Below are positions 29,736-60,094 of a stretch of 64,000 nucleotides of DNA, one piece after another; within the stretch, counting starts at the first letter, position 1; every line of letters begins with the position of its first letter. The notes below the pieces were generated by a model. It had not been told where the DNA came from and searched no databases. It saw only the letters and a list, made by a program, of their open reading frames with translations. The position numbers and the translations under genes were made by a program. The stretch comes from Marsupella aquatica (taxonomy: Eukaryota > Plantae > Marchantiophyta), in contig OZ316891.1 of assembly GCA_973895155.1 (NCBI GenBank), positions 29,990,331 through 30,054,330 on the forward strand. Direction: 5' to 3'.

Positions 29736-32069
29736 TTTAGTTTTGCAATAGCAATATATAATATTTGTTAGCCACTTTACATTATTCGGTTGCCCTTATC
29801 TCAAATTATCCGAATCCCAAAACGATGCCACTCTATCACAAAACTTTCTAAAAAAAAGAAGGTTCTCTAAAGATCAGAGAATAATGTTTTGGATATTATG
29901 TCATCTTTGTAGCTCAGATTGGAATTTAAGGTGCCCCGCATCTGGGCTTTGTTGATTAACTTAACTCAAGGTATCAGTACCCTACCGCCCGCGGGTTGTG
30001 AACAATACTTATTGAGGTATCAGTACCCTGCCGCCCGTGGGTTGTGAACAACATTGATTTCGCTTCATTCAAGAGATGCTCCCTCCAAGAAACAGTATTC
30101 TTTGTTATATATATATATATATATATGTGCAACATCTACAAAAGGTGTCTAGCTAAGGGTTAACTGGCTCTAGTAAGTTTTGACACCAAGTATCATTGTG
30201 TACCCAACAATCAACTCAATACCCCACAACCCACGGGTTGCAGGGTACACAAATTCATCGACCATTAGTAGGCTGGCGGCTGATAAACCTTATCAATAAC
30301 TAGAATGTAATAACATTTTTATGAAAACATTACAAGAAATTCTCTTGAATTCTATCAATCAGAGATGGAGGACCCTACAGCCTGTGGGTTGTGCGGTGTA
30401 CAAATTTTAGGACCCCGGGTGTGGATATATAAACCCTAAACCCTAAATATCCCTATTTCCTCACGGGTTCCAAAGTAGGGTCACAAGAAATTATGATATT
30501 AATAATGAATATTGTCCCCTTTTGACACATGATAGTAGTTATCAAGGGTTCAGACTAGATTTGAGTTTATTCGGCTTCTCAAACGGTTTAGATTTGATTT
30601 CCTGATTAAATTGTTTAATTTGTTACATGATGTTCGGATGTGGTCAGGAGTTCAATTTTAGGGTTGAGATCTCACTCCCTGACTGAATATTATGAAAATT
30701 AATAAGGGCTATTCAAAATTATGAAGGGCTATTTAAAATTGGTTTACTATCTGAACAGATGATTGATGTTGTTTGTTCATAAAATGAGAAACACTTCACC
30801 TCAAGTGAGCAGCAAACTTAATTATTTCCAGCAACTGGTCAAGTCTTCAGGTGAAATTGTGATCTTAGATTTTGTGTTTTAAAGAATTTTAGGGTTTAGT
30901 AGTTACTCCAAAATTTTAGATTCGCGTACATTTCTAGAGCATATACAATATTGTATCTGATTCGAACTTTCACAAAGAACATGAATTGAATGTGAGTACA
31001 TGAATTGAATCTGAATACATGAATTGAATCTGAGTACATGAATAGAGTTTACGTTCATCACATTAGAAACAAAATTGCTTTGATCAGTCACGGGATCAAA
31101 GAAATTTAACACACAGACTCAACCAGAAGAGATATAAACAGGTTACAAATTGTACACAATGAACCAAACAATAAATTAGGGATTTGAAAGTAGACTGCAT
31201 ACCTTATGCTGAGTGACGACACTCTCTTGTAGCTTGAATGTTGTTCCCGATCACTCTAGAGAAGCTAGCTCCTTATCGATCTCCTCAAGTAATCGAGCTC
31301 TCCCTAGATTACTCTCGGTCCTCTGATCGAATTGTCTCGACGTGGGTGACTTTCCTCAATCTAAATGAGCTCAGCCGGTAGTGCTCTCCTCTTGAATGAC
31401 TCCTCTCCTCTAATCAAGCTCAGCCGGTTGAGCTCTCTCCCGCAAGTTTTAAGCTATTATGGGAGAGAGCCTTAACCGATCAAGCTCTCGACCAAGAAGT
31501 ATCACTAAAACAATTGCTATACCTCAAACTTGAAACTCAGACGAGGATTGATTGAAGATGAATGCGCAATGTGAAATAAGCCAGTATCGTGACCACAACA
31601 AAGAGATTGCAAGACAAGCGAGACTAACGCGACCTTACACAAGCGGGTACACAAGAAACATGAGGACTGAAGTCGACTGAGGCTGGTGCAAGGCCTTACA
31701 AAAGAAACCTCGGCGAGAACTGAAGATTGAGGCCGGTGCAAGAGTCTGCATGACGATTCATGCTCACTTTGAGCATCATTCAAATTCAAATTTCAAATAC
31801 AATTCTCTTGGAGGGAAAACTTGGATGCAATTTGACGGCCGGATCCACGTTTTGACAGAATTTGCAACTCGTCATACTGCTTATACTGTAGACGTTATAA
31901 AAATACGATGTTGGACCTACTATGTTTGCAATTACGTCAACACTTTCAACATTGCTTTTTCAATCTGACAATACATTACCTTCCAACATACAAACTAAAT
32001 ATTATTTCAGTTACGTTAAATATATGATTGGGATATTAAATGTACTGTAATATTACTATGGTATATATT

Positions 32070-34915: not shown

Positions 34916-35071
34916 GGAATCAACGTACTCAATCAAGTGATAGCATCAACGTACAGCAGGACGAGTATTGTGAACTGGATGATGGTGACGTGTTTGCTCA
35001 CTCGCGCGCGCACTAGATGATGGCGACGTTTTTCCCCACTCGCGCCTGTTTGAGTACTACCGATCACGTTC

Positions 35072-35235: not shown

Positions 35236-38098
35236 GGAGATTGAGGATCTATATGAGGTTGATCGATATGGCGATTCTAGAGACTACCATTTGATTCAAG
35301 AGGTGTTCAATTGAGAACTGATACTATTTTGCGGACAAACGTACAAAGCATTCATGAGGTGTTCAATTGAGAACTGGATTGCTTTGTACTGATACTATTT
35401 TGCGTCGGGGCAGGGAGCTCTCTTTCTCCAAAAATGAGCTGGACATTTGAGGTATGCAACACCTTGACTGGAACCTAAATCATTTCATTTGGTTCACTTT
35501 GTGAAGTCGCAAGAGTATATCTTCGACAATCGGAATAGTATCATTGTTTCTAGCAAGAAAGGAGGGGAATTAATTACCGTCGGTAGTGACTTTTAGTGGG
35601 TCGGACACCGTTGGGTTGAAATGCCGTTTGGATGGCAAGTGCGAAAGTGAATTGATGAATGAGGAGTTTTGTGTTGCTAGGTTGCATTTTTTGGAGGCAC
35701 CAATGTGTTTTGCGTTGGTTGAGAGCAAACGTCGCGGGAGTGAGGCACGATGTCTTTGTATGTACAAGCTCTGAAAGGTACTAAAACTCACCTATATATA
35801 TATTGTTCAAAGGCTTGTCAATCCTCCTGTCGAATGCTTTCCTAGCCTTGTGCTTCTTGGAATGCTTTCCTGCTTTCAGACTTCTCCTTTTAGACTTCTC
35901 AGACTTCTGTCAGCCTTCGAGCCCCTTCTCCCTAAGTATGTTGACTATGCTTTTTGCGATTTCAGATGCAAATGTGCGTGACAGAGCCTGGATGATCCAT
36001 TGTTGACTACGGATTTTGTGGTGACCACGTTGTGGAGAGCGGTATCCATCCATTGTCAATAATCCATCCAGGTGTGATTGCCTTGCCTTGTATTGCTCGA
36101 CTCATTGTTGGAGACTACATTGGACAGTAAATGATGTGTTTGCCATAATACGTGATCTGCTATGTGAATGATCATGATCTACTATGTCAACAAGCAAGAT
36201 AGTCGCATTTGGGATCTCTCACGGGCCGCTTATTCTGTGAGAAGTCTATGTTTGCATGGGTCTATGGAATGTTGTCAAATAATGTTATCGTTCTCAATCT
36301 TGATGCTTGATAGAGGAGAAGGAACGTAGTTGTTTAGGGTAGTAGTCCTTAAAGCCTGTGTTGTGGTTGTTGTTCGAATTTAATTTTTCATAGTTGTGGA
36401 GCAGTCAAGTTGGTCCGTTTGTGTGCCTCCTGATAACTTAAGCTGCAACCCCGGTTGCACCAAATCTGTTGTTTCTTTGTTAAAGGTGACATTAGTCATC
36501 CCAATAATTTCTAATCTGCCTGCAATCAAGGTAGTCAAGTAGCTCCAAATTCAAAGATCATCAATTGTCTTTCTTCAAAGACATCATTCATCTGGCAATC
36601 GTTCATCGTTCATCTAGATATCTGGAAATCGTTCATCATTCATCATCGTTCATCTGGATATGTAAAGATGACATTTTTAGTTTGAGGTCAGCCGATCATT
36701 CATTGAGCTATGTAATCCCATAGGTAGAGGTTGTCAGGTAGGGATCTATTTGAAATGAGGTGTTGTTTTGGAATGTACAGCGATTGGTGTTAATAGTATC
36801 CTAAACCCTGCTGCCCTTGTTCTCAAATTCATTGGTTTCATAGATTGCTATTGTAGTCCAGAGAGCCCAGCTATGTGGGCCCTCTACAAGTACACAGTAG
36901 GTCACTGAGCCAAATGTCATTATTTTTGGAAATTTGGGAGGCACGAAAGTTTCTCGGCTCTTTGTTTCAATATGTTGTGAGTAATGTGCTGTTGAGATTG
37001 GTTCTCCTGTACTAATTACTCCTTCCCTTCAAGTACTCTGTCAAAGATGAAATCCATGGCCTCCTAATCAGATAAGTGAGTATGGATGATTCCTGTGATT
37101 GAGATTGTGTCTCACTGTGGCTTTGGGTCAAATGTTGTGCAGGTCCATGGTGCTCAGATTCCATAGCCGCCAGGGATTTAACAACAATTTGGCCTAATCA
37201 TCCCAAGCATCTACTCCGACCTGCTCCTCAAAAATTTGCACCCTTGGAATAATTATAGGTAAGCCCCTGGTGTCATATCTAAATGTAATGAAGATGTCAA
37301 AATTTCAGTATCCACTGACTAGTTAATCCATGATTGCATCCACTATCCACTATCCGTGATTGCATCCACTATTCATACCCAATGTTGTTGTGATAAAATC
37401 CTATTGTATCAATGCACATTTGTTAATTTGTTTAGTTTCCAGATTGAAATTTTCAATCTGTCTGTCGATCTTCTTGATCTCAATGTGATTCCTTCTGCCC
37501 GTAGTTGGTACATCTACCGCAACTGCATCACTCTGCATAAAAAAACAAGTGTGTCAATTTGTTTTGCAGGTTTCTAGTGCTTCTCCTGCCTACATCCTTG
37601 ACAAGCATTGTGCGGGGTATAGTCTACCTGCGATGCCTCAATCTTACACACTGAAACAACAATCTGCTGAAGTTTGAAGAGATTAGAGCCCCACAAAATC
37701 CGGGAACAAAAATCTTGAGGTAAGAGCTTTTGGAACTCATTGTCTGGTTCATAGTAAAGATTGTAGAGTTGAACTCGTCCATGAATTGTACGCAATTGCC
37801 ACCAATATTAAAGAGATTATGAGGAAAGACTGTTATCAGGAGATTAGCAATTGTTTGTAATGAGTACTATTACTATTAAAGAAGGGTAATGATTCTTGAT
37901 CCACAGGGGCTACTCTAGCCAAAATATAGATCAATCATATATAAACTATGAAGGGTTGTCTGTCACATAATCCTAGCCCCTCAATCACACCCTCTCGAGC
38001 CTAGCTAACTAGATTTTGGGTCAATTGCTAATGAATATATTGATTAATGAGTATACTATTGATCCGGGGGTTTAGGAGGCTAATAAAACAAGAGAGGA

Positions 38099-38665
38099 CC
38101 TCACCACCCGCGGGCCGTGAGGCTCACTTGGATTGACTGTCTAGCATACCTCACCACCCGCAGGTTGTACATGCAACTCACTAAAAGCTCAACATATCTC
38201 ACCACCCGCGAGCCGTGAGGCTCACTCAGACCGACTGTATAGTATACCTCACCACCCACGGGCCGTGAGGCTCACTCAAACCTATAGTCTAGCATACCTT
38301 GCCACCCGTGGGCCGTGAGGCTCACTTAGACCGACTGTATAGGATACCTCACCACCCGCGGGCCGTGAGGCCACTCAGACCTACACTCTAGCATACCTTG
38401 CCACCCGCGGGCCGTGAGGCTCACTCAGACCGACTATATAGCATACCTCACCACCCATGGGCCGTGAGGCTCACTCAAACCTACTATCTAGCATACCTTG
38501 CAACCCGCGGGCAGTGCGGCTCACTAAGACCGGATGTCTAGCATACCTCACCACCCGCGGGTCATGAGGATCACTTGGACCGACTGTGTAGAACACCCCA
38601 CCACCCACGGACCCTGAGGCTCACTTGGATCAACTGTTTAGCATACCTCACCACCCGCGGGCTGT
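38099..38665. repeat. ~50-bp tandem array (~12 units), each with the imperfect palindrome cctcac-cacccgcgggcc-gtgagg
   Basis: Directly visible; ends ~95 bp before the ATG of the ParB-like gene. Confidence 0.95.
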
Positions 38666-41600
38666 TGGCTGTGTTTGTCATCCATTCAAACAAACTAACT
38701 ATAGAGAGACCTTCCTTTTTAATTAAACAAAATTCCTTGTTTTTTGTGTGACTCCAGATATGGCTCCTAGAAATGGCAGCTCCCGAACAAAGAGCAAGAC
38801 CAAAAGCTCAATTGTTGACCAGCTTGATAAGATGAAAATGATCAAAACATATCGAGGGAAAAAGATACGGGACCTTACCTCACCGGAAGCCAGCTCAATT
38901 TATAGAGTGAAGTCAAGCAACGTCTTTGATTGGGGATTAGTACTCCAGAATAAGGAATTGCGAATATGTTTCACGCACAAGGAGACGTTACATATCGTCA
39001 TGGATGCAGAAATTGTGGGATGCATCTTCAAGTGAAATATGGGGCTTGATGACCTACAAGAAGCATTGGTACTTCTCTTTGACGAAAGAGAAACTGGAGA
39101 AACAATTGGGGTTTGCTTTGATCGAATGGATTATGGAACTTTCTCCCAGCGGAAAGTCACAGAATATCTCACCTCAAGTTCAGAATTGCTTGGTTTGAAT
39201 TGTTGGGAGGGCTTTCCCATTGCACCATTGGTTCCAGATCCAGAAAGTATCTCCAGATACATCAATTCCATTTTGGAGTTCTCAAAACAACCGTTCACCG
39301 AAATATTTTCTGTCACCAGGAAAGGGGGAATTTTGGCATCAAATCCTCCAAAGGATATCACGACGGAGAACGTGGATGAATTATTTTGCAGCTTTCTAGA
39401 ATCATACTCTCATCTGAACATCTTTCAGAGCAAGACTTTTGAGGTGCCTATTGAGAGATGTCACCTGGCACCAAATCACATAAAATGTCGTGACTTTGAT
39501 GAAGATTATGCCACCGAACTGAAGGTTGCTTTCTTTGGCTACTCCTCGATAACCTTTCAAAAAACTCTCTGCTTTCTTGTCCCAATAACATGGGACTCAA
39601 AGAACAAATCAAAAGGTTACTATGGAACTCCTCTAAAAGAGGCACCGCAGAGTGATGATATTACCAACACACTTGTCACTTCTGGATTCTTGGTGGGCAG
39701 CACACAATAATGGCATACAAGGCGATCCTCAAGGAAGATGATAAGCGATGCACATTTCGGGAGGATCTTCGCAAGGTTCAGGCAATTATGTTCTGGTCCC
39801 CATACAGTTTGAAAGAAAACCTCATGATGATGGGGCTCTCTCGAGCCTTGAACAATATCCAGAGAACTCAACTTGACGAGACTAACTTTCCGTTGATAGC
39901 GTCCCAAGCACGTGCAGTATGGAAAGAGTTTGGAAGTCCAAGAAAAGAGAATGCTCAGGCAAAGGGGTCAAAATGGAAGGTAAATTATCAGACACTTCTA
40001 GATAGCATGAGCCCTACAACCCGCGGTTTGTGTGGTAACATTGAATATAATGACTTGAATCTGTATTTTCTGTAGGGTTCTAATATTATATTTTGTAATG
40101 TTTTATATTCAGGTGTTCCTTGAAGCTGCCAAGATTATTGTTCCATGGGCACGGCAGATGAAAATGTTTTCATTTACCGAGCTCAATCCGTTTATCTTTC
40201 ATATGAGCGATGCAACATTCAGCAAATGGATGTGGGTATATGAGAAGTCTCGTACAGGATCCCTTATAGCGTTCAATGGTAAAACGCAAGCTCAGGCAAT
40301 AACTTACAGTAACCGGAAGACTTGGCAACTGAATAGGCGATGCTTCCGAGATCTACAAGGGATGGAGGAAGCTGACATAGACAAGGTTGCCGCCTACTTG
40401 TTGGAGAATTCAAAGATATCTCTTTTGAAGGACCGACCTCATTCAAAAGATTATGATGCTGAAGAAGCCGAAAAGTTTATTTCCATGGAAGAATTTTGTG
40501 TCAACAAGAAGTAGAAGCGAATGTTTGAGATAGATCTGTTGGAGAACTTGGGTGACGGTGGCATGAAACGTACTGAATTGAATAGCCTGAAAAAGATTGA
40601 GAGGAAAGTTGAGGTTGATATCTTGTGCAAGAGGTATCATCTTAATAAAGAAAAGCTGAGCAGGATCAAGGATTCACTAGGAGAGGAGTATCTCAACAAG
40701 GCGTCGCAGAAAACAACCAGTGTTGGAACAATGAAGAGTCTTCTCCCAGAGGCTTTTAAGAGCTTAATTGCCGCAACAAAGAACTCCATTGACGAGTTTG
40801 GAAACCTGAAGCCTCCCCAAATCAAGGATATCCTTCAGTTACACTCGCGGAAAGGTCTGAAAACAAAGAAATTTCTTGACGAAATCTCTGAGTCCCTGAG
40901 ACAACGGGTAAACTTTTTCTATTTTGACTCCACTATTCTATCTGATGACGGTCCATTCATATCCAGTTTTTACTCTATGTTCATCAGAGCAATTAAACAG
41001 ATGGGGACGGTAAATCATGTCCTTGTCCATGTCTTAGATCCTATTGAGTCTATTTTCATGATGAGAGAGTTAGTGTCAACTCCAGGATATTTCCCATTCC
41101 AAACAACTTACGTCCAGAGAAGAGGCACCGAAAAGTCTCATATTTCCCTCTTTAACACAGAGCGGGATGTTACATATACTATGACATATGCATTTTGTCA
41201 ACCTCTCTTATCAAAATCTACCGACATGACAAAGATAGGGGAAGCAATTAAGTCCAGTCTACAAACTCGGGGAACTCTCCTTAACTTTCAGGAGTCTAAA
41301 GAGGATCAGGCTGCTAGGTCTTTCCCTGGTGAGAAAAGTATTCTCTTTTTCCAATACTTGACTCGACTGTTTCTCGACAACGGAAAGCGTGCTGTCTGTT
41401 TTGGAGAAGGGCTAAACTTGGTCAAATGCCTCCTGGTAAGCTTTCAAGTATTATTACAATTCTATTTTTGAATAGCTTTAACCTTATCTTAAGTTCCTCT
41501 AACATCTTGCTTGTTTATTCCAGGAAGAAGGAGTTAAGGTTAGATCTTATTGTAAACGATCATTTCACACAGAAATGAGTGGGTATTTGGTGCCTTGTAT

Positions 41601-42399
41601 CCCAGTAAAGCACCATGTCTCGATAGAAAAAGGCTTGAGGCAATGATGAATGCGAAGATATCTCGAGGAAAAACCTTCAGAGAAGTCAAAGAAGATGTAA
41701 TTGATCATTGTAAAAGCATGCTCACATATAGTGATGAAAACGTTGAGAGAGTTTTAAAAGAGTATGAATTGAGTAACCTCCTCAGCCAGAATTGGATATA
41801 CTATTTCCCATCAAAGATGCCAGTTGGACCACTTAAAGGTTAGTCAGCCGAAACCATATACTTGATTAATTTTAATACATTCACTAACTTGATTGCACAA
41901 ATGAAATTTTGAAATCTGATTGTTGTTCCTCTGTTTCAGATGAGAAGTCTACTATCTTTGAAGATGAAATCAACACTGGAGAGTATGAATCAAGTGAGGA
42001 GGAGCCAAACGTTGCAGAAGAACCAGGGTCAGAATCTGAAAACCAAGACGATGATGAAGAACCAGGGTCAGAATCTGGAAACCAAGACGAGAGCTCAAAT
42101 GAGTCCATGAGTGCAGACAATCATTCAAAGAAGCGGAAGAATATGGGTGACAAAAGTGACATGGAGACTTTACAGCATAAGAGAAGTCAAAACAGGAGAC
42201 GAGTTGATACTCGTCAAAAGTATACAAAAAGGAAGCAGAAACCAACCAGCGGTACCGATGACTCCGAACAGGAGTTTGATGACAATTGGAGGGAGCGGCG
42301 GATGAAAGAAAAACAAGATCAAAAACAGCAAGCAGATGAGAAAGAGCAAAGGCAATTTACATACACTGAAGAAGGAGGAGGGGCGGATGAGGAGCAGGG

Positions 42400-42835
42400 A
42401 AAAACTAACCTGGATGGTGAAGGAGATGAAGATGGTGATCGTGATGAGAATGAAGGATATGGAGGTGGTGCAGGAGATGAGAATGAAGGAGATGGAGGTG
42501 GTGATGAGAAGGAAGGACATGGAGGTGATGATGAGAAAGAAGGACATGGAGGTGATGATGAGAAGGAAGGACATGGAGGTGGTGCAGGAGATGAGAATGA
42601 AGGACATGGAGGTGATGATGGGAAGGAAGGAGATGGAGGTGGTGATGAGAAGGAAGGACATGGAGGTGATGATGAGAAGGAAGGAGATGGAGGTGGTGCA
42701 GGAGATGGAGGTGGTGATGAGGAGCAGGGAAAAACAAAGCTGGATGGTGAAGGAGATGAAGATGGTGATGAGAAGCAAGGAGATGGAGGTGGTGATGACA
42801 AGGAAGGAGACCGAGGTAGTGATGACAAGGAGGAG
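42400..42835 (+). repeat. Coding low-complexity repeat (GGDDEKEGH-type)
   Basis: gatgagaaggaaggacatggaggt units in ORF 41909-43447. Confidence 0.9.
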
Positions 42836-43742
42836 AGCAACAAACAGAGCGATGGATACAAGGGGAAAAATGTAACAGAAGATGGAGAAAGAGAAGAAAA
42901 CTACTGGAACAAAGCCGGTGATAATGATATTGTGAAACTAAATATCCGGAATTATTTTCGATCAGTAGTAAGTCTTGAAGACACAACTCGGCCAGATAAC
43001 ATTTCGGTTGCAGACTGGGAAGTATACTTCCCCGATGAATTGAAACTTCATGCTTGGAATGGGAGACAATTTTGGACTACTGTTTTGAATGATATCTCAA
43101 CTCTAATAACACCTTCAGAGAGAAAAGAGTTCGAGAGAAATAAAATATTTATGGAAGAAGCTTGCTGTCGGATTGGAGAGCCCTCCATTAGCTTGATGGC
43201 CGAGGAGAATGCTTTAATTGACATGACCCGATGCGATCATGCTTGGGCAAAGTTGAATGAAGATACTTCTTCAGCTACAACCCATGGGCCGTCAGATGCG
43301 AGGTCAGATGGCAACGAAGGTGATCAGATGGAACCAAATTCTCTCAATGAAGAACAGGAAAATGAAATAGATGAAGCATACGCCAATGTTTTGCTCAATA
43401 TGCCACTACCTTTCCAAGGGCATAAGGTAAACTTTCTATTATCCTAAGTAGCCTTAATGTACTGTCTAGTTTTATTTCATCGCCTCTGGTTTATATTTTT
43501 GAGCTTATTCTAATATCAAATCACCTCATCATGCAACCAGGTAAAGGATGTTCCCACTTTCAGCAAGAGAATTTCTGCATCGGACAGAAATGGGATACAC
43601 ATCATAACTTTGTGATGAGATATATCAACTAAAAAAGCAGCTACTTCAAAGAGTAGAAATGGGGTCTTGCAAAAATTTAGTTTTGTTTGCATAGATTTTA
43701 TAAAACTATAATTCTCTCATTATTTTTTTTCTTGATGTACAG

Positions 43743-44330
43743 GTGAAAAAACTCATTATTCTTGATGTAAACAAAGTTATTTTGTTAAGTGTGTATTCTA
43801 CCAAACTACTTGACCAAAGTGCCGGAGTTCGGGTCAGGTCTAAGTTCATCTACAAGAGGCCGTATTTGCGCGAGGTTCTAGATTTTTGCAAAGCAAACTT
43901 CGACGTTGCAATTTGGTCCTGCATGCAATGGCACAATCTTAAGCCTATCCTTCAAACTGTATTGACTAGTGATGACAGAAAACAGTTAAAATTTATTGCT
44001 ACTCAACAGGACACAGTTCGAGTTGGCAACCATTTCAAAACCCAAAAACCAATTTTCTTGAAAGAGTTGAAAAATCTGCGTTCGAAACTAGAAAATGACT
44101 ATTATAGTGAAAACATTATACTCATTGATGACTCTCCTTACAAAACGTGCCTAAATCCATTTTACTCTTCTCTCTACCCTGAACCGTATTCTGGACAGAT
44201 AGCGGACAATTTTTTCCCCAACACTCTTATTCCATACCTCAAAACACTCCTGAACTCTTCCGAAACAATGCACAAAACCATACAAAACAAATATCCTACT
44301 TGGTCATTGTCTGCACTAGTTGAAGATTGA
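43743..44330 (+). CDS. NIF/FCP1-like (HAD) phosphatase domain exon
   Basis: KLIILDVNKVIL (degenerate DxD motif), KRPYLREVLDFC..NFDVAIWS, FLKEL, ENIILIDDSPYK; begins directly after a cag acceptor. Confidence 0.85.
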   Translation: MKKLIILDVNKVILLSVYSTKLLDQSAGVRVRSKFIYKRPYLREVLDFCKANFDVAIWSCMQWHNLKPILQTVLTSDDRKQLKFIATQQDTVRVGNHFKTQKPIFLKELKNLRSKLENDYYSENIILIDDSPYKTCLNPFYSSLYPEPYSGQIADNFFPNTLIPYLKTLLNSSETMHKTIQNKYPTWSLSALVED

Positions 44331-44551
44331 GAAGAAAATAGAATGATCTGGTCAACTAATGACACTGTGAGGTTAGAGAGTGACCCACATCACCTCAAAC
44401 AATTTAATGAGTACGCTGACGTTGTTTTTCAATAAATGTAAGGACTCTTTTTTTCTCATGCATATTTAATGTTAATGTTTTATTTAGTTTATTGCCTCTT
44501 TTGTTTTGTATTATTTAATGCTCAATTGCTGACATGTTTTGTGTTGTGCAG

Positions 44552-45175
44552 ATTATAAAATTTGTTTCTACCCGAAAATTACTTCTTTTCCATGTTGAAA
44601 GCATTCTCGTCTTCTCCGCTGGGTTCTCAAGGCATTTAAGAAATTCGACTGCCTTCTGCGTTAAGAAGAAAATGATCTTTCCTAGACCATTTGTTCAAGA
44701 GTTTTTAAACTTTTGCTCTGAAAACTTTGACATTGGATTTTGGTCCCGGAATCATACTGATTGGTATGAAGTGGCCGATCATGTTGATCCACTTCTCACT
44801 GAGAAGGCTCTTGAAAGTTTTAAGATACTATGGTGCCGACGAGACGACCTTAAGTCAAATCAGTGTGGAATGAATATCAAGATTGTTATGAAAGAAGCCC
44901 CTGGGTATTTATATGAAAATGTAGTACTCTTAGGAGAGGCAGCATCTATAAGTTTTGATTCTCCATATTATGCTGCACTTCATCCAAAACCCTTTTACGG
45001 TGATCTAGGTGACCAGTTTTTAGAAAACACTCTCATGCCCTATCTTCTAAGACTTGCTCACTCAAAGGTTAGTGCACATAGATTTATTAAATCCAACTAT
45101 CCATTGTGGTCAATGAGGCCTAGAGAAGAATTCCAAAAAAGTAGAGACATTAAGGTGTCTATTTACAAAGATTAA
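44552..45175 (+). CDS. Second, catalytically degenerate NIF/FCP1-like domain exon
   Basis: RPFVQEFLNFCSENFDIGFWS and ENVVLLGE...LHPKPFYGDLGDQFLENTLMPYL parallel the previous exon; the catalytic Asp is replaced (LLLFHVES). Confidence 0.75.
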   Translation: MIKFVSTRKLLLFHVESILVFSAGFSRHLRNSTAFCVKKKMIFPRPFVQEFLNFCSENFDIGFWSRNHTDWYEVADHVDPLLTEKALESFKILWCRRDDLKSNQCGMNIKIVMKEAPGYLYENVVLLGEAASISFDSPYYAALHPKPFYGDLGDQFLENTLMPYLLRLAHSKVSAHRFIKSNYPLWSMRPREEFQKSRDIKVSIYKD

Positions 45176-47821
45176 ATAGAGTTATTTAAATTTGGTTTTA
45201 GATTAAAGACTACGTTTCATATTGTCTGTGATACTACATTCACTATAATAAAAAGTGTGCAAGTTACATTATCTTTAAAGCTCTATCTTGAATTACTCTC
45301 TATTGCAAATGAATTTGATGTTTATGTTAAATTTTTCATTCCGAGTAAACCTCCATGTACTATGTACACTATATGTTCACAAACAGGATATTTTTTATTG
45401 CTACGCTCCATGGATTGTGAAAGTATTATCCTTGTGTATGGTTTAAAGAGAATCATATACCAAAAAAATACATGTATAATACAATCATAATTAAATATAA
45501 TATTAAATAATATACACTATGAATTCCGGACTTAATTAATTCTGGTTTTGTCTAAATTGGGGTTAATGGACTTTTTGATAATTATTGTTATTTTTGTCTT
45601 AGTACATATATTTCTAGAAAATGATGGCAGTTCTAAGTTACTTGGATGTCATCCTAGTTTGAATATAAGATATTTAACTTGTCTAGCATTTCATTGTTGC
45701 TTAGATAATGATCCTATCCAAGCTAGATGTTTTGAGTATAGATGCTATCCAAGCTTATGTGTTATTACACACGTTCTATCTATTTTCAACCAAATGAACA
45801 CTTTTTATCACCCAAATGTTTTTTTAATATTATCCAAATTAATATTTTCTTTGCCCAAATGTCTATTTTTTTGCTCCAAATTTATAATTCATGATGCTTA
45901 AATTTTCATTTTTCATCCTTCAAATTTACAATTCTTATGCCTAAAAGTGTGTTTTTAAATGCCCAAATTTCCAAATCTTCTTTATAATTCCACTTTTAAT
46001 GAATATAGTGATCTTCAAGCTCAGGGGTTTAAAGAAGAAGGGGTTGGCGCCTTCTACGTTCAAGCTTGGGGGTTTCACTTCCACAAAAATGGCATATCAC
46101 GTGCGACGAAGTATAGGGTCATTTTATTGGTTCAAAGGGAAGACTTAAGAATTTTATGAGACTGAAGAACAATAGGGTCTTTTAAATCCAATTATGAGAC
46201 TTATAAGAACATTACTAGGGGGTCCGAGGCCTAAAAACGTCGCAGGTGATGGGGAGGCATCCATATAGTGAGACCCCCATGCCTTCAAGCTTCCAATCGA
46301 TTGTGGCAAGAGCGGGGGTAAGAGTCTTTCGATCGGATCAAGGTAACAATGTAGTGAAGGTTTTCCTGGGGGTTTTTCTGTTTCGGATGCAAGTTACTTC
46401 CATATAGTGTATTGTTGCCCACTCCTATCGTTTAAATGTTGGATAGTAAGTCCAAGTCTATTCTGCTCTATAAATAGATAGAATGTGCGCCTGGCTCTTC
46501 AACGCCAATTCCATTTTGTATACCTCCGTGTCTCTCAGCGCTCATTACTGCCCCAAGATTGCAGACTGAGTGAACATCCTTTTCTTGGCTAAAGTAGTTC
46601 ACGTATGCTAAAGGAAGGCATTTAATATTAGCCACATGCTTCTACCATTGCAATTTTGTAATATTTCCGGTTGAGTCATTCTTATGGGATGGCTTTGTTC
46701 GGGGCTTTGTTTTAATTGATGTTCATTCTTGTCTCTTCTCTATAGGTGAAGCGCAAGGCTAGGCAAACATTTGCTAGGCTTGTTACACTAGCGGAACAAC
46801 AATTGGGGAGAAAGCAGTGGGGAAAGCAGTCGGTCAACTTTTAAGTGTTGGTGAGTATGCTTAACTTCTTGAAATCTGTACTAGGTCCTCGGATGAATAC
46901 CTTGTGTTAAATTTGCCTTATTCTTCAAGGACAGGATCCCACATGTCTTTTTGCAATTTACTAGCAACACGATTTCGGACCGAACGAGAACTATTTCCTC
47001 TAAACAAGAAGTGTATTTTTATTTTCCGCCGAATCTCGCGAAATCGGCAGTTTTTTTCATCAAAAACGCATTTTTGGGGAAATAATATAATTCGTATCGG
47101 AGTTCGGATTGAAACAACAAATTTAATAATGATCAAAACCAATGAAATTCATGCTAACAAACATTCATATTATCAAGGAACAATTAGATCCAAAAAACTT
47201 TCTCCTCGACCTCATATTCACGCTCTCCGAAGATATATGAAAGGTCTTATCTATAAATCCATATCCATGTTTCGAGCCAAGTGCGATAACTGTATCGAAC
47301 TCCGGATTTGAGCCATGAAAACTCCGACCCAATCTCAGGTTTCTCAGTTTTTGGATATTTACCAAAAATATTTTACATCACAGTCGATAAGAATTACTGC
47401 ACGGTTCGTCAAATTTACCTTGCAGTTACCTCCGCAATTGACCAGTTACCTCCGCAAGTGACCATAGTCAACATGCCATTCTTTCAACAGCAATGCGCAG
47501 TCCGATAAAATTATCGCGAAAACTACGGGCGACAAAAATACTAGTCGACAATACTAAGATCCTTCGGTTCATCGGTTAAATTTCAAAATTCCTATCCATA
47601 TGAAGAAAACTCTTCACAATACCAACATCAGATAAATTTATCGCTTCAATTTCAAAATTGCAACTTCCATATGAAGGAACCACTTTTGCAATACCAACAT
47701 CAGATAAATTTATCGCTTCAATTTCAAAACTATATAATTTTGCCACGATGCACGTATGAGAATGAAATTGGAAATCCAAGAAATATACCCTTTTCTGCTA
47801 TTTTGTCGTTTAGGGTGACAG

Positions 47822-47870
47822 CCAATCAAAAGTGGACACGTGGGCCAACCCCTCAACAGACACTATAAAA
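47822..47870 (+). promoter_or_regulatory. Putative promoter of transposase gene C (CCAAT, G-box CACGTG, TATAAAA)
   Basis: CCAAT 47822, CACGTG 47837, TATAAAA 47864; ~150 bp upstream of ATG 48015. Confidence 0.5.
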
Positions 47871-48014
47871 GGGCCACCGCCGATAAGTTTTTGGCGTCAT
47901 TATCGAGAGTAGAGTTTTGGGAGTTGTGTTCTTGGAGCAACATTCTGTCCGTTGAGCCTTTCGTTTTCCCTGATTGTGGGAGGAATGCAAAGCCCCATAG
48001 TGTCTCGGATAGCC

Positions 48015-51000
48015 ATGTCTCAATCAGACACAGATTCACCTTCCAGTTCAGTTGAATCCTCTCCTAATCTTGTCGCTCGCTGTTTGCCAAGTCGCATACT
48101 TAAAGCTCTACCTCTCTCACAGCAAATAGTGCCCAAAATCTCTGACTCAGATTCTGATGCAAGTTCTGGTCCTGAGCCCAGTGCTTACTATGTGTTGCCT
48201 AGTAAACCTGAGAAGCGTCGTCTCTTGAGCGTTCCATCGCCAAGAAATGAGAAACTTTCAATCCCAAGTTTACGTCCGAGACGTCGCTTCAGGCCATCCA
48301 TCCCGGGTTATGGAGAGGGTATCCGGCGACCGATACGCGTATCACAGTCGGCATTCAAGTCGCCACATTCAACACAAGTTCAACGACGGATCTTTCAGTC
48401 TCCGGGTGAGGATCGGGACACAGAAATACAAAGACCAATACGGCGATCGGTCTTTGCATTGCCTGGACTGGATGTGCGAGCAAGCGAGGGAATCGGACTG
48501 CGAAGTCCAGACTCGGTCCTTTCTCGAATGGTCCGTGGGAATCGTGGTGAACAAGTGCTCAATTTTCCAGCAGCTCGCAGAGTCGTTGGGACTGCACGTG
48601 CGAATCCAGAATCTCCAAGTTCTCAAGGGCGGACTGTCATTGGTTCCAGGCTCCAAGTATCGAGGAGAGGTCTTAATGGCGTTTGGGTTATGTATAGAGA
48701 GCCACGGAGTCCAATTGTGTTTTCAGATGAGTCGAGTGCATTGGAGGACGAAGATGAGGAAGGAGATAGAGAATCCGATATAATAGCACAAGTTGTGTCT
48801 GAATGTTTAGAAGGAGCTGTCGAAGAGAATAGCTATAGTCGTCTATTCAGTGGCCCTCTAAATGCGTCAAGAAGATCTATAGAGGATGGTAGCTCAGCAG
48901 AGAGTGATGCATCTATTCGCGAGGCACCTGAAGGACCCGAAAATGCCAATGTTATGAACGGATTTCAGGTTGTAGAGAAGTCAAATGAGCCTAGTAAAAA
49001 AGATAGGGACCGAATTACTAGGAAAGACAATGTGATAAATGACAAATTGAATAGAAACAAAATGAGAGAAATTCATAAGTATTCGTGTTGTGATAATTAC
49101 TGTCTGCAGAATTTGGGTCTGCTAGCCATGACGAAACAACGCACTTATTAAGTCTATGGGCTATCCTACCCAGAGAAGAACGTCCTTCTAAGAGGATGTG
49201 TGAAGGGTGGGCATGCTGGTGCAAGTGGTTACTCAGTTAGCGGTAGATCCTTTTGTCGAAGAAATTATTTTCACTGGGAAATAATCGTCTCCAAAAAATC
49301 TCGCAGAACATATTTTCTCGGATACAGATTGGTACAGTTTGTCGAGAAAAATCACCCGCATATCTTGGTCTCGTCCAATGGCTAGATGATTTTTTTTCCA
49401 CAAATGTCGAGAGTCTCCCCAACAATGATATCTTTCATTTACCTGACAATTGGACAAAAATAGAAGTTTTTGATGCCTTCCAGTCCGAAACTCTAATGCG
49501 CCAAGAACAAGGCATGACATATTCGTGGTTTGTTCGCATTTGGAACAAGGAGTTTCCTCGCGTGCGCATCCCCAAAAGGAGCCGTTTCTCCACCTGCGCC
49601 CCGTGTACTGAATTCAAAGCACTCCGTGACAAGGCAACACTCGAAGCAGAAAAGAGTAAATTTCTAAACCTGTGTGTTACTCCCGATAATTTTATCGGGT
49701 TGAGTATTCATGTGCTTCTTCTTTGGCCATGTGAGTGAATATATCGTTTGAACAGTTTGAATACTGAACCTGATAAATTTATCGTTGTCACAGTTTTTCA
49801 TTACGGTCTTGTGTTTGAATACTGAACCCGATAAATTTATCGTTGTCAGGGTTTATCATTACGGTCTCGTGTTTGAATACTGAACCCGATAAATTTATCG
49901 CTGTCAGGGTTCAATATTGCGGTTATCATGTTTTGTCCTAAATTTTTTTATTGTTGTAGGAAAATTCTCAACATTGCTAAACGAGCATCGGAAGGCACAA
50001 GCAGTCGAGAGGGAGAAGTTAGCAAAGCACCGGAGCAAATGTTACAAGAGTCCGGAGAAATATTTGGGCATCTGTATTGATGGAATGGATCAAAAGAAGA
50101 CAGAGTTACCTCATTTCATTCGGTGTCCGAAGAATATGGATGAAAAGTATTTCATCCCCGTACACATAGTGGGTTGTTTGATCTTCAACAAACAATTAAG
50201 TTCAAATGTTTTTTTGAACTATCCAAATATTCACAATGATAGCAACCTGACCATCCACGTTATCCAGCATATTCTGAATACCTGGGAAGGTCTGCTCCCT
50301 CCAGTGCTTTACCTCCAGCTTGATAACACAGCTCGGGAAAACAAGAATAAATATCTTATGGCATATTTGAATATGTTGGTGGAGATAGGTGTTTTCCAGA
50401 AAATAAAGGTTGGTTTCCTATTGGTGGGGCACACCCATGATCAAATTGATCAAATGTTTAGCAAGTTTTCTTCAAAATTGAACAAGCGGAAAGCTTTCCA
50501 GTTGGACACTCTTTCAGCAATCATAGAGGAATCCTACAATCCTACGACAAAGATATTTTTCGTCGACGAGGTTGCCGATTTCAAGAAATTTGTGTCAGAC
50601 AAGGATCAAGCAAATGACAAGGATATGGATGGTCAGGTTCTACGTACTCTCCACGGCATAAGTGCTCAAAAACAATTTTGGATTACTAGAGTACTCGAAG
50701 ATGGAAGTGCTCGGTCCGTAAATTCCATGCCAAACATCTTTCAACGACAATCGATTGGGGGGAGACGGTGGATTTTGTTCGGTACATTCCATCATCTGGA
50801 ATGTGGGTCGCACCACAAATGGCATTGAAGTCGGCCACGGGAGCGACAGGAGACAATGAAGAGCAAGAGAATGATGCTGAGGAACAAGATGAGCGGGCGG
50901 CTCAAAGTTATTTGTCAACTCTTCAAAAATATTGAAGAGCAATTGAAGATGGATTCAATTACTTTGACGACGCAGATCGTCTATGGTGGGGTCGTTTTTT

Positions 51001-51556
51001 TTACAAACAAAAAGAAGTGATTCAACACCACCTGAAACCTGCACAATGGAGTTTTGATTGGAGTTGGCCCAAGGTAAACGTACAGAGAGAACTTCCGAGT
51101 AATCCTACGGAAGCAGCAATGGAACCTAGCTTGGTTGATAAAGTAGCGGGTGTGAGGACAGTCATGTATTCCGGAAGTCGAAGAAAAGTCACGGAAATTG
51201 GAGACTTCAAGGATCTAGAGGTGAATACTAAATTTGCAATGATATGTGTAGTAGCCCATCAGGATCCCAAGGGAAGACCATTCTGGATGGCAAAAGTGAT
51301 TGAGATTCTCACAAGAATTAACGACATCCCGGAGCGGATTAAAATCACTTGGTATGCAATGGATTCGGAGGAAGAGTCTGCAATTGAAGGCAAATATTAT
51401 CCGGAGAAAGAGGCTTCGTCTAGCAAAGTACTGGAGGATGAATTGTCCCTATCAGAAACTGCCGTTTATGCGTATAACTTTGCGTTATTGGCAAATAGTA
51501 CTCTCCCTACAAACAAGATGAATCATTCAAAATGCAATGGAGACTGTAGTCATTGA
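48015..51556 (+). pseudogene. Sola-like DDD transposase gene C, one intron (49656-49959), several stops/frameshifts
   Basis: Ser/Arg-rich N-terminus, then CCDNYC, FSTCAPC, ICIDGMD, YLQLDNTARENKN, FLLVGHTHDQID and a C-terminal PFWMAKV..ITWY; split across ORFs 47952, 49253, 49917 and 51017. Confidence 0.88.
49755..49912. repeat. ~58-bp intronic tandem repeat x3, each carrying (C/T)GATAAATTTATCG
   Basis: gtttgaatactgaacccgataaatttatcg recurs with palindrome starts at 49771, 49829 and 49887. Confidence 0.9.
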
Positions 51557-52010
51557 TAGTCGAAGCTAGTTTCAGGTTTAAGTTATAATGGTTATCGTTC
51601 CCATGAATATGTACAGTGGTTATCGTTCTAGGACTATGTACTCCGAAGCTATAATGATATCTTTTTTTTTAAATAATTGCAATGACAAACCAGTTAGAGA
51701 ATACAATGCTGCCCAATAAGATTATCGACAACTCCATTCCCCCAGCAGGAACACCGCGATAGTCCGATATATGCAAAGTCCGATAAATTTATCGCATTAA
51801 TAAATGTGACAAAGGTTCTTCCTCATGGAATATAGAAGTCGATAAATTTATCGACAACTTCATTGGTGATTGACATTATCCTAACGAGCACACGCAACTA
51901 ATCTAATAACATGTCGTTGAGATCATCCTCATTTGGTGTTCTGGGAGGCTCTTCCTCAGTTTCTTCTTGTTCCTCTTCGGTCTTGTAGATAGGCAGTAAT
52001 TCCAAAGTCA

Positions 52011-55000
52011 TGAAGAAAACCGGAAAATTTTTAAATTTTTGAAGTAGTTAAACTATATTTGCTGATAACTCGAGTAAACTAAACTCTGCCGAAGATTAAG
52101 AGTTTAAGAGTTGAAGAGTTGAAGTGTTTAAGAGTTTACGGGTTTACGAGTAAACCCTACTTTAATAGTTTAAGAGTTTAAGAGTTGAAGAGTTGAAGTG
52201 TTTAATAGTTTAAGAGTTTAAGGGTTTACGAGTAAACCCTACTTTAAGACTTTACGACTTTAAGAGTTGCGACTTGCGAACTGGCGAGCCCCGCGATTGT
52301 GACAGGCTACGGCTAACTCCAACGGGACTTTGCAACAAAACGAGGAGCAGGCCTTGAAAGGGAAGGAATGCAAGACATAGGCGCTCACTCCTGACTTCTC
52401 TTCCGCTGCATCTTTCATCGCTCTCGACTCCAAACAATTCTTCACGTAGCTCAGTGAGCAGAATTTGAGCTATGGCTGACTTGAACGCTGATGCACAGTA
52501 TCGTGTTCAAACTCTGGCAATTCCTAAGAGTGTGGTCGCTCGAATTCCTTTGGCGCCCGACAGTTGTGAAAATTTGAGAACATCGTTATAGCAGCTCGGA
52601 TTGGAACATCTACTCGCAATCCCTTGGAATGTGGAGCTCGACTCTTATTTACAGGATTTTGTGAGAGGATCACTGATTGCCCCTGAATTTCGACAAACCA
52701 TTCGAGCTCGGCCAAGTTTATGGACAGTTGAGCAAGTAGCTCATGCCTTCCGCTGCCCCTTAGATGGAGAAGGATTATATTCAAAGAAAAAAGATTTGTC
52801 CACTCCTTACTTTTCAGGGATTCGCCATCCTACCAATGGCTGGAATGTGACACAATGTACCTATCCGGATTTGAGGATTCTTTTAGAATTTCTAGTGCCC
52901 ATTCTCCATCCGAAGAGACCAACTATCTGCCCTGTGGCATTGGCGAATACTATCGTAGCTTCTCACAGTGGAGCTATTCAAGTAAATTGGGCGTTGTTAC
53001 TTTTCAATGTGATGCACGATCAGGTGAGAAGTATGAAGGCAGGCAGACCTACTTGTCTACAAGTCTATCTATCTCAGCTGTATCAAGCACATGACTGTTT
53101 ACATCCGGAGGAGAAAACAGAAAGGGGATTACTTCTGATCGAGTTGGACATTGAGGAAGAAATTAGTGTAGCAGAATCAGAACAGGACATTCTGCTGAAT
53201 TCCACTGATCAGGATGTTAATATGGAGGATGTCTCGATAGATGGTTCGGAATTTCCCCCTGAACACAACATGGAGGTCATTTTATACTCTCCAAGAGAAA
53301 TCAGTGGAACAGATCGACTTGAAGCTGAAGGAGACGAGATTTTTCCTGAGCAACAAGAAGTCGTTGTTGAACCAACTATTACTGCCATACGAGGAGTCAC
53401 CATGCCCCCTTTTTCGAAAGCAGAGTCAAATCAGCAGCTTATTGATAAGTTAATCTCTCTCTTCGGTTGCAGTGATGTTGAACTCTACGATGTTGTCTGT
53501 GATTTGAGATCCGAGGCAGTTAGCTTATCCTCTCCATTTCCAGATCAGCTAACCCCTGTCAGGACCGCTTCTCCCATTGAGAGGTCAGCACCAGAAGAAT
53601 TTGTTGCTCTCACTCCTACTGTCCCACAGAATCTACCTCCAGAGCCAAGTGAACCTGTCTCAAGGATAGGAAACACAAGTTGTGTTGCAATTGTAACTGA
53701 CCTACTGGAATTGCTTCAGTGTGAACCTGAGGAGATAATCTCTGTGGTTAGTGACTTAATTCCGAAGTACACAGAATTCAAAGGCCCTTCCAACCCGGGT
53801 GACTGCATTTATAGTCCAGATTCCAATTATGAGCCAACCGAGGGACCTATTTATACCCAACCACAATATGAACATCCTTCTGTTAGACAGGATCTTCCTG
53901 AGGATTCTGATCCACCCTCTGATTTTGATTCCATCCGATCTTATGACAACTCTGTCGAGTCGTCACCAAGGCAAGGATTTGAGGATGTTGACACTACCTT
54001 AAGATCTGATCCAAATTTAGTGGCAGTTGTCACCTCCTCTACTCAAACACCCCGGTATTCTGTCATTGAGAAAAGATATACACGACATCCAGAGTCTCAA
54101 GTGCAGAGGTACGTGGAGACTTGTAAGATAATGCAGGCCAACAGACCCCCAATTGGAGAGTTTTGGAGATACTACTACCTTAAGAAGACTGAGGCCAGTT
54201 ACATATTTGACCTCAGAAGTTTCGGAACTTCAAGAGTGGAGATGGCTCAATTTGATGAGTTCTGGGCTGACTCAATCTACTTCCGACCCATCCTTGCTAT
54301 GATGCTACTTCAAGGGGATGTAGAAGTAGAAGATCCAGATTTGGTTTTGGCCTATTTCGGGAATTTTGCAGCTTACGCTCTGGACTTTGTGATTTCTTTT
54401 CTCATGCAGAGTAAGAAATCCACTTCTCACCAGAACTCTTACATCCCACGAGAGCCGAAGGTTGTCCTTGTTTCCACCAGTTCCCTAGCTGAGAAACAGA
54501 GGATCTGGAATAATGTCACTACTCAGACCCTGGCTCATTTCAACCGATATTTTAAGGATGTCAGATGGAGACTTCGACCCTTCTATTCCAGGATGATGAG
54601 TAGTGATGAGTTCCTGTTTCATTATCCTCAAGTGTATGCTGCCACCTGCAACAACTATGATGTACTAGGGATGTACAGAGAAGCTCTTCGTATAGATTCC
54701 TGTTATTTGATGAAGAGAATGCCTTTGATGTATCCTGAGAGACAACTAAGGTGCCTACCCTACTCTCGAGGATCACCACGTCAGACTAAGCTGATGGAGG
54801 TAACACAGAATCGGACTGTCACCTACGTGGAGCTGCTCGAACCCGATGATATTCGACAACAAGCTTGAAGGAGACTATCTTTTTAGCTAGTATTGAAAAG
54901 TATAGTACTTTTACCAATTTTTCTAAATGTGTTGTAGAGCTTTAAAAGCTATGAGACTTCTTTAGGCTGTAGTCTGTACCTAGGAAACCCTGCTGGAAAA

Positions 55001-56590
55001 ATTTCAGAGTTTTCCGAACCAGGAGTAGAAAGTTAAAAATAGTTGAATCTACTCAATTTTTAGTATACCGAAATTAAGAGTTTAAGAGTTTAAGTTTTTA
55101 CGTTTTTAAGAGTTTAAGTTTTTAAGAGTTTAAGAGTTCATACTTAGCCATTTTTTCCGGCTTTCCACTTATTGAATCGTCGTTTTGACTTTTTGAGGGT
55201 TATGAAGAGGCATGTCTCTTCGACCCTGTGACCTCTTATTCTGTAGTTCATCACTATTTATACCTCTTCCCCTAGTGTAGAGAGATGGTTAAGTTTTGCA
55301 GTTTTGCCTCTCCCTTGTGTTAAACTAGTTGATCATGAATCTATGAGTTCGAGATCAGGTTTAACATTTGGAGAGACTTACCTCCTTCTTGTATTTTGGA
55401 ACCCAAATACTTGAAGTAAAACCTCAGTTATGAATCTCGTGAATTATAATGTCAGATTCCGCTTTGGTGACACATTGTAATCTCACAAGTTCTTAGAGTT
55501 AACTCATTGAGTTTAAGTTACATTGGAAATGATGTTTTCACCTTCATGTTGCTTAGTACCATCTAAATGCTGAAGTATTTATCCTTTTAGATCTTGACTA
55601 AGTATCACTTAGGAAGAAAGGTCAAGACATGTTGCCGGCATTTTAAAAGGATACTCTAGTATGCAGTTTAGATCTGAAAAGCCGTGTGGATTTGGATTTC
55701 CTTAAAGTCATTCCATTATTACTTATGTCTAAGGAGTAACCTTGGTCTATTCCAGACTCCCTTAAGCATACTCTGAGAGATTTTTCCTTGTGTTTTGTTA
55801 ATTGCAATCTTTTGCTTAATTGAAGGTTATCTGATGTTGAGTTATCATCAAAAACTACTCACCGCTGTGGAGCGATCTTCAAAGTACCTGATTAAAGTAG
55901 TCAAGATTGATTACTATGTGTGACACAAGAGCTTAAGGCTTTATTTTTAGTTTATTTCATCAAACCAACCCAATCTTGTTCTTAACGGGAACGAATACCG
56001 AGTTTAGAGACGTAAAAGAGTTCTTTTGATTCTCTATAGCAAACTACATGAGATTTTTGGCGCCGCTGCCGGGGAACAAATCAAGGATGGTTTGAAGTAC
56101 AGGCAGTGAATGCCAAAAGGAGGTTAATTCAGTGAATCTGGAATAAACAAAAGAAAGGTGGAAGTTGACCATGGAACCCCAAGGAGAATGGGAGTTCCCT
56201 CCATTACAAATTCGATCTTTCACAATGGAAAATGCACCAGAGGCATTTAGGGAGAGATTTGGAGGTGAAACTCCTCCCTCAATTTTGGAAAGAAAGAGAA
56301 AAGCTAAAGCCAAGAAGGAAAGACGAAATGGGGCTTAGTGGGGGAATATCCTTCCCAAGAAAGAGATGGTGAGGAAAAGCAGACCTCAGAAAAGAGAAAG
56401 AGCCTTGATTAGGTCAAGGGATAATCAAACACACACGATTATCAGTGCCACTGCAAGAGAGAGAACAACTATTTTGAGAAGGCAGGTGTCCAACATCAGA
56501 GGAGGAAGCTACTTTTGGGGTGGCGAATTGGTGAAGGTTGACTCCTGGGACACCAATATTTTGTATGATTGTGTATTTGTATGCAATCGC
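52011..56590 (+). mobile_element. Truncated Gypsy (Athila/Tat-like) LTR-retrotransposon-derived insert; boundaries approximate
   Basis: PBS-like TGGCGCCGCTGCCGGGGA at ~56058-56075, shortly after ...AACTACA. ttaagag-type repeats at 52095-52265 and 55074-55140. The segment lacks the host element palindrome. Confidence 0.65.
52472..54868 (+). pseudogene. Retroelement-type accessory ORF (plant-mobile-domain-like N-terminus), one premature stop
   Basis: ATG 52472, in-frame TAG 52589, then 755 open codons. The N-terminus (IRARPSLWT...LLEFLVPILHPKRPT...NTIVAS..VNWA..YLSQLY) resembles, from memory, repetitive bryophyte TE proteins. Confidence 0.6.
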
Positions 56591-56663
56591 TTAGAAACCA
56601 ACAAAGGAATGCTAAAGCCGATAAAAATCTTGCGATAGAGCATGCTGTGAGAGGAATGCTTAC

Positions 56664-58865: not shown

Positions 58866-59088
58866 GGAAAAGTCTGCAAATAAACAAATTCCAATGCAAA
58901 GAGCGATAAAATTATCGCCGCCAATCTCACAGCACATCTGGACACGACATCTCATCACACAAGGACAAAGAGACCGATAAAATTATCGCAAAAGTGAGCC
59001 TTCTTTAAATTGACGGCCGAGTGTACAGGTCGAAGAATCAGCTACGGAACCCTAAATCCAAAACCTTAAGGTTCCCTAAACCTAAACC

Positions 59089-59802: not shown

Positions 59803-60094
59803 GGCCTGATCACCGAATAGAAATCAGGAATAAATTTTGGAGAACATACTAATTACAATTCTACAAGTTTCATCCAACTTTACAGTACCTTGTATAACGG
59901 GCTGTGAAGCCAATGCACTTGTCAGCTAATCGTCCGAAGAGGCGCAAAAAAATACACTCTGGACCACACAACTCGAAGTCAGGGGAGGCAGAGTCAATTA
60001 TATTCAAAGTGTTTCTTTACAAGCACCCAAAATCGACTAGAGGAATGAGGAGTGCGATAAATTTATCGGATGTTCGCTGCAATGCCTCATCCAC

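Follow-up and report, generated by a model that had tools for sequence, protein, structure and literature searches.

The liverwort Marsupella aquatica carries, in a 64,000-nucleotide stretch of contig OZ316891.1 (hereafter the window), a segment resembling a DNA amino-methyltransferase, and the question raised by this locus is what such a segment is, to which gene and genetic element it belongs, and what it may do there. A reading of the letters alone (the sequence-only reading) had proposed a ParB-like domain fused to a degenerate beta-class methylase, interpreted as horizontally derived cargo that may now act as a DNA reader. Related designs have been described: the survey of Iyer et al. includes, in its accessible text, chlorophyte fusions of ParB-HTH with methylases as well as DIRS1 elements whose methylase domains are dead (PMC4738411), and in papers on algae it has been proposed, without tests in the accessible text, that accessory proteins with a ParB and a methylase part bind the transposon that encodes them and methylate it (PMC12477816; bioRxiv 10.1101/2025.02.11.637652).

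Our analyses place the segment within a cut-and-paste DNA transposon, a eukaryotic element of 39,922 bp at 5643-45564 (Table 1), in which the inverted repeats, target duplication, transposase and empty site are all those of a TIR DNA transposon. Two contigs from one of the sequencing runs used for comparison (X1) leave the window at 5642, and the sequence in which they continue agrees at 27 of 30 positions with the flank that follows the right duplication; these contigs likely stem from a related copy of the host repeat and show the empty site there. At the right end, one X1 contig stops at 45564 and an X3 contig continues 60 bases past it. The window is rich in transposons: a Pfam scan of 32 of its ORFs detected four DUF7869 pieces, two NIF domains and one weak Transposase_21 match. 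The transposase of the window copy is interrupted by a stop at 7067-7069, which is a sense codon in three runs, and by four extra bases at 6292, which are absent in all four. It lies on the strand opposite to the accessory gene that contains the methylase-like segment, and the 28 kb between both element genes contains nested repeats and other genes. DUF7869, for which our literature search found no paper naming it, is presumably linked with Sola transposases. The target duplication of Sola1 is 4 bp long and of the AWWT type (PMC3845634, accessible text); AATG has this length and fits at three of four positions, as a single site next to a neighbouring element with TAGC.

Table 1. Features of the 40-kb element, its accessory gene and the neighbouring element (positions in the window).
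Feature	Position	Strand	Evidence or remark
Left target-site duplication AATG	5639..5642	.	Same 4 bases at 45565-45568
Left terminal inverted repeat, 19 bp	5643..5661	+	Perfect match to right end
DUF7869 transposase pieces (7635-9326, 7067-7450, 6266-7066)	6266..9326	-	Pfam DUF7869 E 3.1e-35, 0.02
16-bp element palindrome in transposase intron	7515..7530	.	
Element palindrome cluster	29984..30392	.	3 within 3 mismatches
Tandem array, 50-bp unit x 11.4, each around palindrome core	38098..38665	.	Ends ~95 bp before ATG
Exon 1: unnamed N-terminal and ParB-like domains	38760..39979	+	Colinear with P0036
ParB-like domain (R.F.E..A..L ... FWILGGQH at 39680-39703)	39414..39920 (approximate)	+	PHROG, profile, second ORF
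Intron 1, GT-AG, phase 0	39980..40112	+	P0007 and P0036 read across join
Best ACAACCCGCGGGTTGT palindrome copy, within intron 1	40016..40031		
Exon 2	40113..41435	+	Splice signals, translation
Helical region of exon 2, family motif FRDLQG	40113..40859	+	Homologs read through
Beta-class amino-methyltransferase-like domain (folded segment)	40812..41435	+	Predicted structure, alignment
Intron 2, GT-AG, phase 0	41436..41523	+	Homolog ORF ends
Exon 3: presumed last strand of methylase-like fold (by eye), short helical part	41524..41838	+	
Intron 3	41839..41939	+	Splice signals and frame only
Exon 4: acidic Gly-rich tail, 27-bp repeats, short globular end	41940..43426	+	
Intron 4, phase 0	43427..43742	+	Splice signals and frame only
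NIF (FCP1-like HAD) domain exon, in frame	43743..44435	+	Pfam NIF E 2.2e-15
Second NIF domain, more degenerate	44552..45175	+	Pfam NIF E 7.9e-09
Right terminal inverted repeat, 19 bp	45546..45564	-	
Right target-site duplication AATG	45565..45568	.	
Neighbour TIR element, 15.1 kb	46966..62100		Ends AAC...GTT like 40-kb element, TAGC duplication

Three-frame translation combined with splice signals delineates a spliced accessory gene with four introns, extending from an ATG at 38760 to at least 43426 and thus larger than the interval 39400..41560 to which the sequence-only reading had assigned it. Its product consists, in order, of an N-terminal domain, the ParB-like domain, a helical region, the methyltransferase-like domain and an acidic tail, reaching ~1,450 aa by the end of exon 4; the NIF domain, whose exon adds ~230 aa, is probably the gene's final part. 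The intact homolog P0036 from Calypogeia fissa aligns with exon 1 and the start of exon 2 at 35% identity over 514 aa (E 8e-105; breaks in the window sequence read as X), and this colinear alignment speaks for the start, for the first join and for a frame that continues across 39033 and 39667. Intron 2 is supported by the homologs, whose ORFs, where they extend to the end of exon 2, stop or diverge right after the same CLL position; the LLEEG that had been read as part of the motif series does exist, joined to it only across this intron. Because introns 3 and 4 are placed by splice signals and frame only, we infer the fusion of the NIF exon. Motif I of the NIF domain is DVNKV, in which the second Asp of DxDx[T/V] is replaced, and the NIF part is a probable second pseudo-enzyme within the same protein. 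The two NIF/FCP1-like domains stand in tandem at 43743-45175, with catalytic motifs altered in both. Calypogeia fissa is the sole named source of homologs (four of the 20 representatives looked up, from 23 found, and one cluster member).

The window copy cannot make the full protein, as five breaks occur between 38760 and 44435: the stops TGA at 39033, TAG at 40512 and TGA at 44328, two extra bases at 39667 and one base missing near 41585. These breaks were checked in contigs from four sequencing runs (X1-X4; two organisms, two studies, one possibly the window's source). Both indels are absent in all four runs, 44328 is a sense codon in four of four and 39033 in three of three covering runs, and at 40512 a sense codon stands in X3, in X4 and in some of the X2 contigs, X1 retaining the stop. 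A frameshift near 39665 had been held to hide the GGQH motif, and indeed GGQH is found at 39692-39703 in the shifted frame behind the two extra bases, at a point where P0036 reads straight into FWVLGGQH. X3 and X4 carry a frameshift of their own at 43138, and by the differences listed, a fully intact accessory gene was found in none of the X1-X4 contigs. Among the 40 difference rows listed, 24 substitutions are private to the window (X1, X3 and X4 all differ from it); 18 are C>T or G>A and 15 of these fall in CG/CHG, the context of 655 of the 2627 cytosines in the compared stretch. This spectrum fits the decay of a methylated copy, and the deamination pattern excludes sequencing error as the only cause of the breaks; both small indels could be assembly slips. 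Each of the four runs also has other contigs whose match is limited to the GGQH codons and their surroundings (39675-39720) and is lost beyond them, which suggests that these genomes contain additional members of the gene family.

The idea of loose, horizontally derived cargo is thus replaced by that of an intron-containing gene of a delimited eukaryotic transposon. Given such a gene with relatives in a liverwort genome, we infer that any transfer from prokaryotes is old. A prokaryotic contig or a recent transfer is ruled out by introns common to the homologs.

The methylase-like character of the segment is borne out by its predicted structure. An AlphaFold2 model of 40812-41435, built from 19 sequences without templates, has a pLDDT of 85.2 and a pTM of 0.85; it derives from a shallow alignment and leaves out the last strand, which is presumed to lie in exon 3. 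A single-sequence model of 40860-41435 was poor (pLDDT 41). When the AlphaFold2 model was compared with 48,161 chains, M.MboIIA ranked first (Z 14.1, rmsd 3.3 A, 172 residues), all of the ranks 1-20 were permuted amino-methyltransferases (Z 14.1 to 8.2), and rank 21, the next fold, had Z 7.2. The best solved match in Foldseek was CcrM (E 3.1e-07); other top matches were TTHA0409, MTA1, M.MboIIA, M1.HpyAVI, M.BceJIV and M.RsrI, and the top named viral matches were N4/N6 methylases. The domain is accordingly predicted to adopt the permuted Rossmann fold of a beta-class amino-methyltransferase, with motif IV ahead of motif I. This fold and the permuted motif order are shared with M.MboIIA, CcrM, M.BceJIV, M.RsrI, M.PvuII and the rotifer N4CMT (Z 12.0-14.1), on which the predicted model superposes with an rmsd of 3.2-3.8 A over 165-186 residues at 5-14% identity; in contrast to these enzymes, the domain described here lacks DPPY/SPPY and FxGxG, is spliced and is fused. 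The claimed order of degenerate methylase motifs therefore goes beyond chance.

The downstream motifs on which that claim was based are present as remnants: DSTI (within VNFFYFDS, D at 40926) replaces DPPY, and FPGEKS (P at 41325) and AVCFGEG (41391) follow. In DPPY-type motifs, the two prolines and the aromatic residue position the target base (PMC4738411, accessible text). The catalytic pattern [DNSH]PP[YFW] is kept in 0 of 16 aligned family members, of which 15 retain the motif IV Asp, and the SAM-binding FxGxG is kept in 0 of 15 family rows, eight of which have FGEG; the EK of the P.EKP motif is common among the aligned members. By eye, and for the window only, the acidic SAM-binding residue of motif II also appears to be replaced in exon 3. 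Since no member keeps either DPPY/SPPY or FxGxG, the methylase-like domain is, as judged from these alignments, a family-wide pseudo-enzyme, and the absence of intact catalytic and SAM-binding residues noted earlier extends to the whole family. The sequence-only reading had named two outcomes that would speak against it together, no predicted Rossmann fold and no homolog retaining the motifs; a Rossmann fold is predicted, and homologs retaining the motifs are lacking in the aligned sets.

Searches by sequence, which count against the fold, returned no methylase: none was found in the PDB by phmmer and profile searches, none for the domain in the ESM Atlas or by phage tblastn, and none among the models in NCBIfam or the PHROG names for the methylase-like family, while 0 of 12 family members match Pfam N6_N4_Mtase or another methylase. 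A scan of metagenome contigs with P0029 gave 67 pattern matches, of which none was confirmed; a word-index search with the exon-2 ORF gave no homolog among longer proteins, which is weak evidence of absence, and the same search with the family profile gave two matches, both already known.

Loss of the catalytic motifs is compatible with a functionless relic, in which the front of the protein alone, or nothing, matters. The five breaks in the window copy and the degenerate NIF domains agree with such a relic. However, frames remain open across the domain in homologs of only 28-59% identity to the window, a level of conservation equal to that of the adjoining linker (26-57%; seven homologs spanning both), the intron position is shared and the fold is confidently predicted, and we consider a relic improbable. 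Taking protein identity as a proxy for selection, these values suggest that catalysis was lost long ago and that the domain has been retained since. That the fold is kept while the catalytic motif is lost argues that binding or scaffolding, not methylation, has been selected.

A retained but inactive fold might also be one half of a heterodimer that steers an active 4mC/6mA methylase, of the host or of another element, onto the transposon. METTL14 is the inactive partner of METTL3, and MTA9 likewise of MTA1. The beta-class fold suits this explanation, chains of METTL3-14 and MTA1-MTA9 are within the top 20 of the structure search, and active liverwort 4mC methylases with TSPPY exist. Yet these chains score below the prokaryotic enzymes, no active partner was found, with no aligned family member keeping the motifs, and the element showed no further methylase gene; we regard a heterodimer half as slightly less probable still than a relic.

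The domain at the front of the protein bears its ParB label plausibly. The window pattern aligns in ParB order (R.F.E..A..L, a hydrophobic strand, then [YFW].[IV].GG.H..A), and the best PHROG match of P0036 is the ParB-like family 1033 over the right residues, at E 0.13. No match for the domain was obtained in Pfam or NCBIfam, and its score against a reference profile of 37 bacterial ParB domains (37 of 39 loci) was 15.7, a value that shuffled sequences exceeded (up to 21.3). The arginine motif GxxRxxA is typical of CTP-binding ParB. It is present in the bacterial reference set, whereas the window and P0036 have GGQHTxxA, which is without the arginine. A second GG.H ORF in the window, 56496-57653 (-), has GGNH and likewise lacks the ParB arginine; it is homologous to the family profile (score 28.7, reached by 0 of 60 shuffles), matches PHROG 1033 at E 0.023 and has DUF3723 (0.95) and ParB_N (0.92) as look-alikes in the ESM Atlas. 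Compared directly, the ParB-like region of the window and this ORF show no significant similarity (53 of 500 shuffles reach the score), and a word-index search with the second ORF found no homolog among longer proteins, which again is weak evidence of absence. The proposed ParB-methylase fusion thus holds in so far as a methylase fold and a GG.H domain are joined in one frame, the ParB label itself being weak. In the ESM Atlas, the second ORF comes closest to fungal DUF3723 clusters, and our literature search found no paper naming DUF3723 together with ParB.

The 40-kb element also contains a candidate target for such a protein. The 16-bp palindrome ACAACCCGCGGGTTGT has 11 matches within three mismatches in the window, against 0.12 expected, and all 11 lie inside the element; this confinement alone is modest evidence, as the matches form only four clusters and the element makes up 62% of the window. 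A different palindrome, CCGATAAATTTATCGG, has all 17 of its copies inside the neighbouring element. Neither palindrome occurs in the other's element, and both contain CG sites. The CGATAAATTTATCG palindromes, considered as part of the accessory gene, were rejected, being located in the neighbour element only. The neighbour carries a DUF7869 transposase (+, about 47913-51556) and a ParB-like gene (-, about 56496-58982), the downstream part of which was not found there.

From these comparisons we favour, with a probability of about 60%, the reading that the accessory protein recognises its own element via the palindromes, with the dead methylase fold employed for binding or as a scaffold, and thereby aids anti-silencing or transposition. 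In this view, binding to the palindromes of the upstream array and of the introns in both element genes would fall to the ParB-like and helical parts, and the methylase fold would write no marks but grip the DNA or act as a scaffold. Such binding might protect the expression of the element's genes from host cytosine methylation, in the manner of VANC and VANDAL, or might keep far-apart portions of a very long element together when it transposes. VANC of Arabidopsis VANDAL is an anti-silencing accessory protein with family-specific target motifs in tandem repeats of the element (PMC5735166, accessible text); the likeness is a functional analogy only, anti-silencing having been demonstrated for VANC and being proposed here by analogy.

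A host-domesticated reader of methylated DNA, a reading hinted at by the DNA reader suggested at the outset, could likewise account for a retained dead enzyme fold and for the CG sites in both palindromes. Against it, the gene lies within a delimited transposon that has an empty site, and the window copy decays by deamination like methylated repeat DNA; this explanation appears very unlikely, and the anatomy is better accounted for by a protein that would bind the palindromes of its element than by one that reads methyl marks. Least probable of all is an active methylase with non-standard motifs that marks the element palindromes with 4mC/6mA, as proposed for Ectocarpus, for in spite of the common EK, the motif IV Asp and the FGEG of many members, the prolines and aromatic residue for the target base are absent in 16 of 16 and the acidic residue of motif II is apparently replaced.

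The nearest published design is that of Sola1-1_Ec32 of Ectocarpus, a 21.5-kb giant DNA transposon with an accessory protein proposed to bind and modify its own element, encoded by a gene that lies opposite the transposase strand and joins a ParB-like to an N4/N6 methyltransferase domain (PMC12477816, accessible text). The 40-kb element has this type of accessory design, with its ParB half weakly supported. It differs, in a comparison by description with the accessible account, in its land-plant host, in its length (39.9 kb with nested insertions), in the family-wide loss of the methylase motifs and in the added acidic tail and NIF domain(s). In the Bostrychia Plavaka element, a ParB-like accessory gene (PAG3) stands beside tandem inverted-repeat arrays, and there too ParB is weakly detected (HHpred E 0.29); however, PAG3 has a 2OG-oxygenase, the methylase is on the separate PAG2, and the transposase is of the EnSpm/Plavaka type, compared with DUF7869 here (bioRxiv 10.1101/2025.02.11.637652, accessible text). 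Marchantia MpDN4MT1 is, like the domain described here, a prokaryote-type amino-methyltransferase in a liverwort, but it is an active host enzyme with TSPPY, whereas the present gene is transposon-borne and lacks this motif (bioRxiv 10.1101/2021.02.12.428880, accessible text); a further account reports it, in its accessible part, without extra domains (PMC8885841).

The design has hence been published before, in Ectocarpus Sola1-1 and, together with arrays, in Bostrychia PAG3, and supplements may hold closer relatives; our literature search, subscription journals aside, found no land-plant element of the ParB-methylase accessory design. New in the present work are the delimitation of an element over its full length, the testing of the dead domain by structure, the probable NIF fusion and two adjacent protein-palindrome pairs. 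A broader possibility, which we put forward tentatively and consider less likely than its opposite, is that giant land-plant transposons use a private, ParB-parS-like self-recognition, in which each family would have a ParB-like pseudo-methylase and its own 16-bp palindrome, the two adjacent pairs being examples, and in which anti-silencing would be unrelated to VANC. If true, this would be a second sequence-specific anti-silencing system, assembled from two prokaryotic domains with discarded catalytic sites. As each of the two neighbouring elements has its own ParB-like gene and palindrome, cross-specificity is directly testable. Were the favoured reading right, it would describe a further way in which very large transposons survive where plant genomes are methylated, and sequence-specific DNA binders could be drawn from such elements.

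Several other features of the window were observed. The insertion site of the 40-kb element lies immediately downstream of a third DUF7869 transposase gene (flanks 1789-5642 and 45569 onward), which has a 919-aa open frame 29% identical to the element's own transposase; related copies of these flanks supply the empty site. Within the element, 10786-15715 (-) is a nested, CACTA/Plavaka-like gene set with the weak Transposase_21 match (E 0.0073); a 480-bp insert of very high copy number (11423-11902; TTGGC duplication), missing from an X1 contig, interrupts it, and a related copy lies at about 19300-19670. Also inside the element, a spliced gene at 24763-28691 (+) has a first exon that by eye is SAM (sterile alpha motif)-like, with no Pfam match, and contains an internal duplication (26794-27436). 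A complex satellite-like block at 32060-34930, again part of the element, has periods of 74, 219 and 443 bp. The neighbouring element contains an insert of ~3 kb (52085-55160), which has TTAAGAGT 8-mer arrays at both ends and encloses a 758-aa ORF (52592-54868; no Pfam match).
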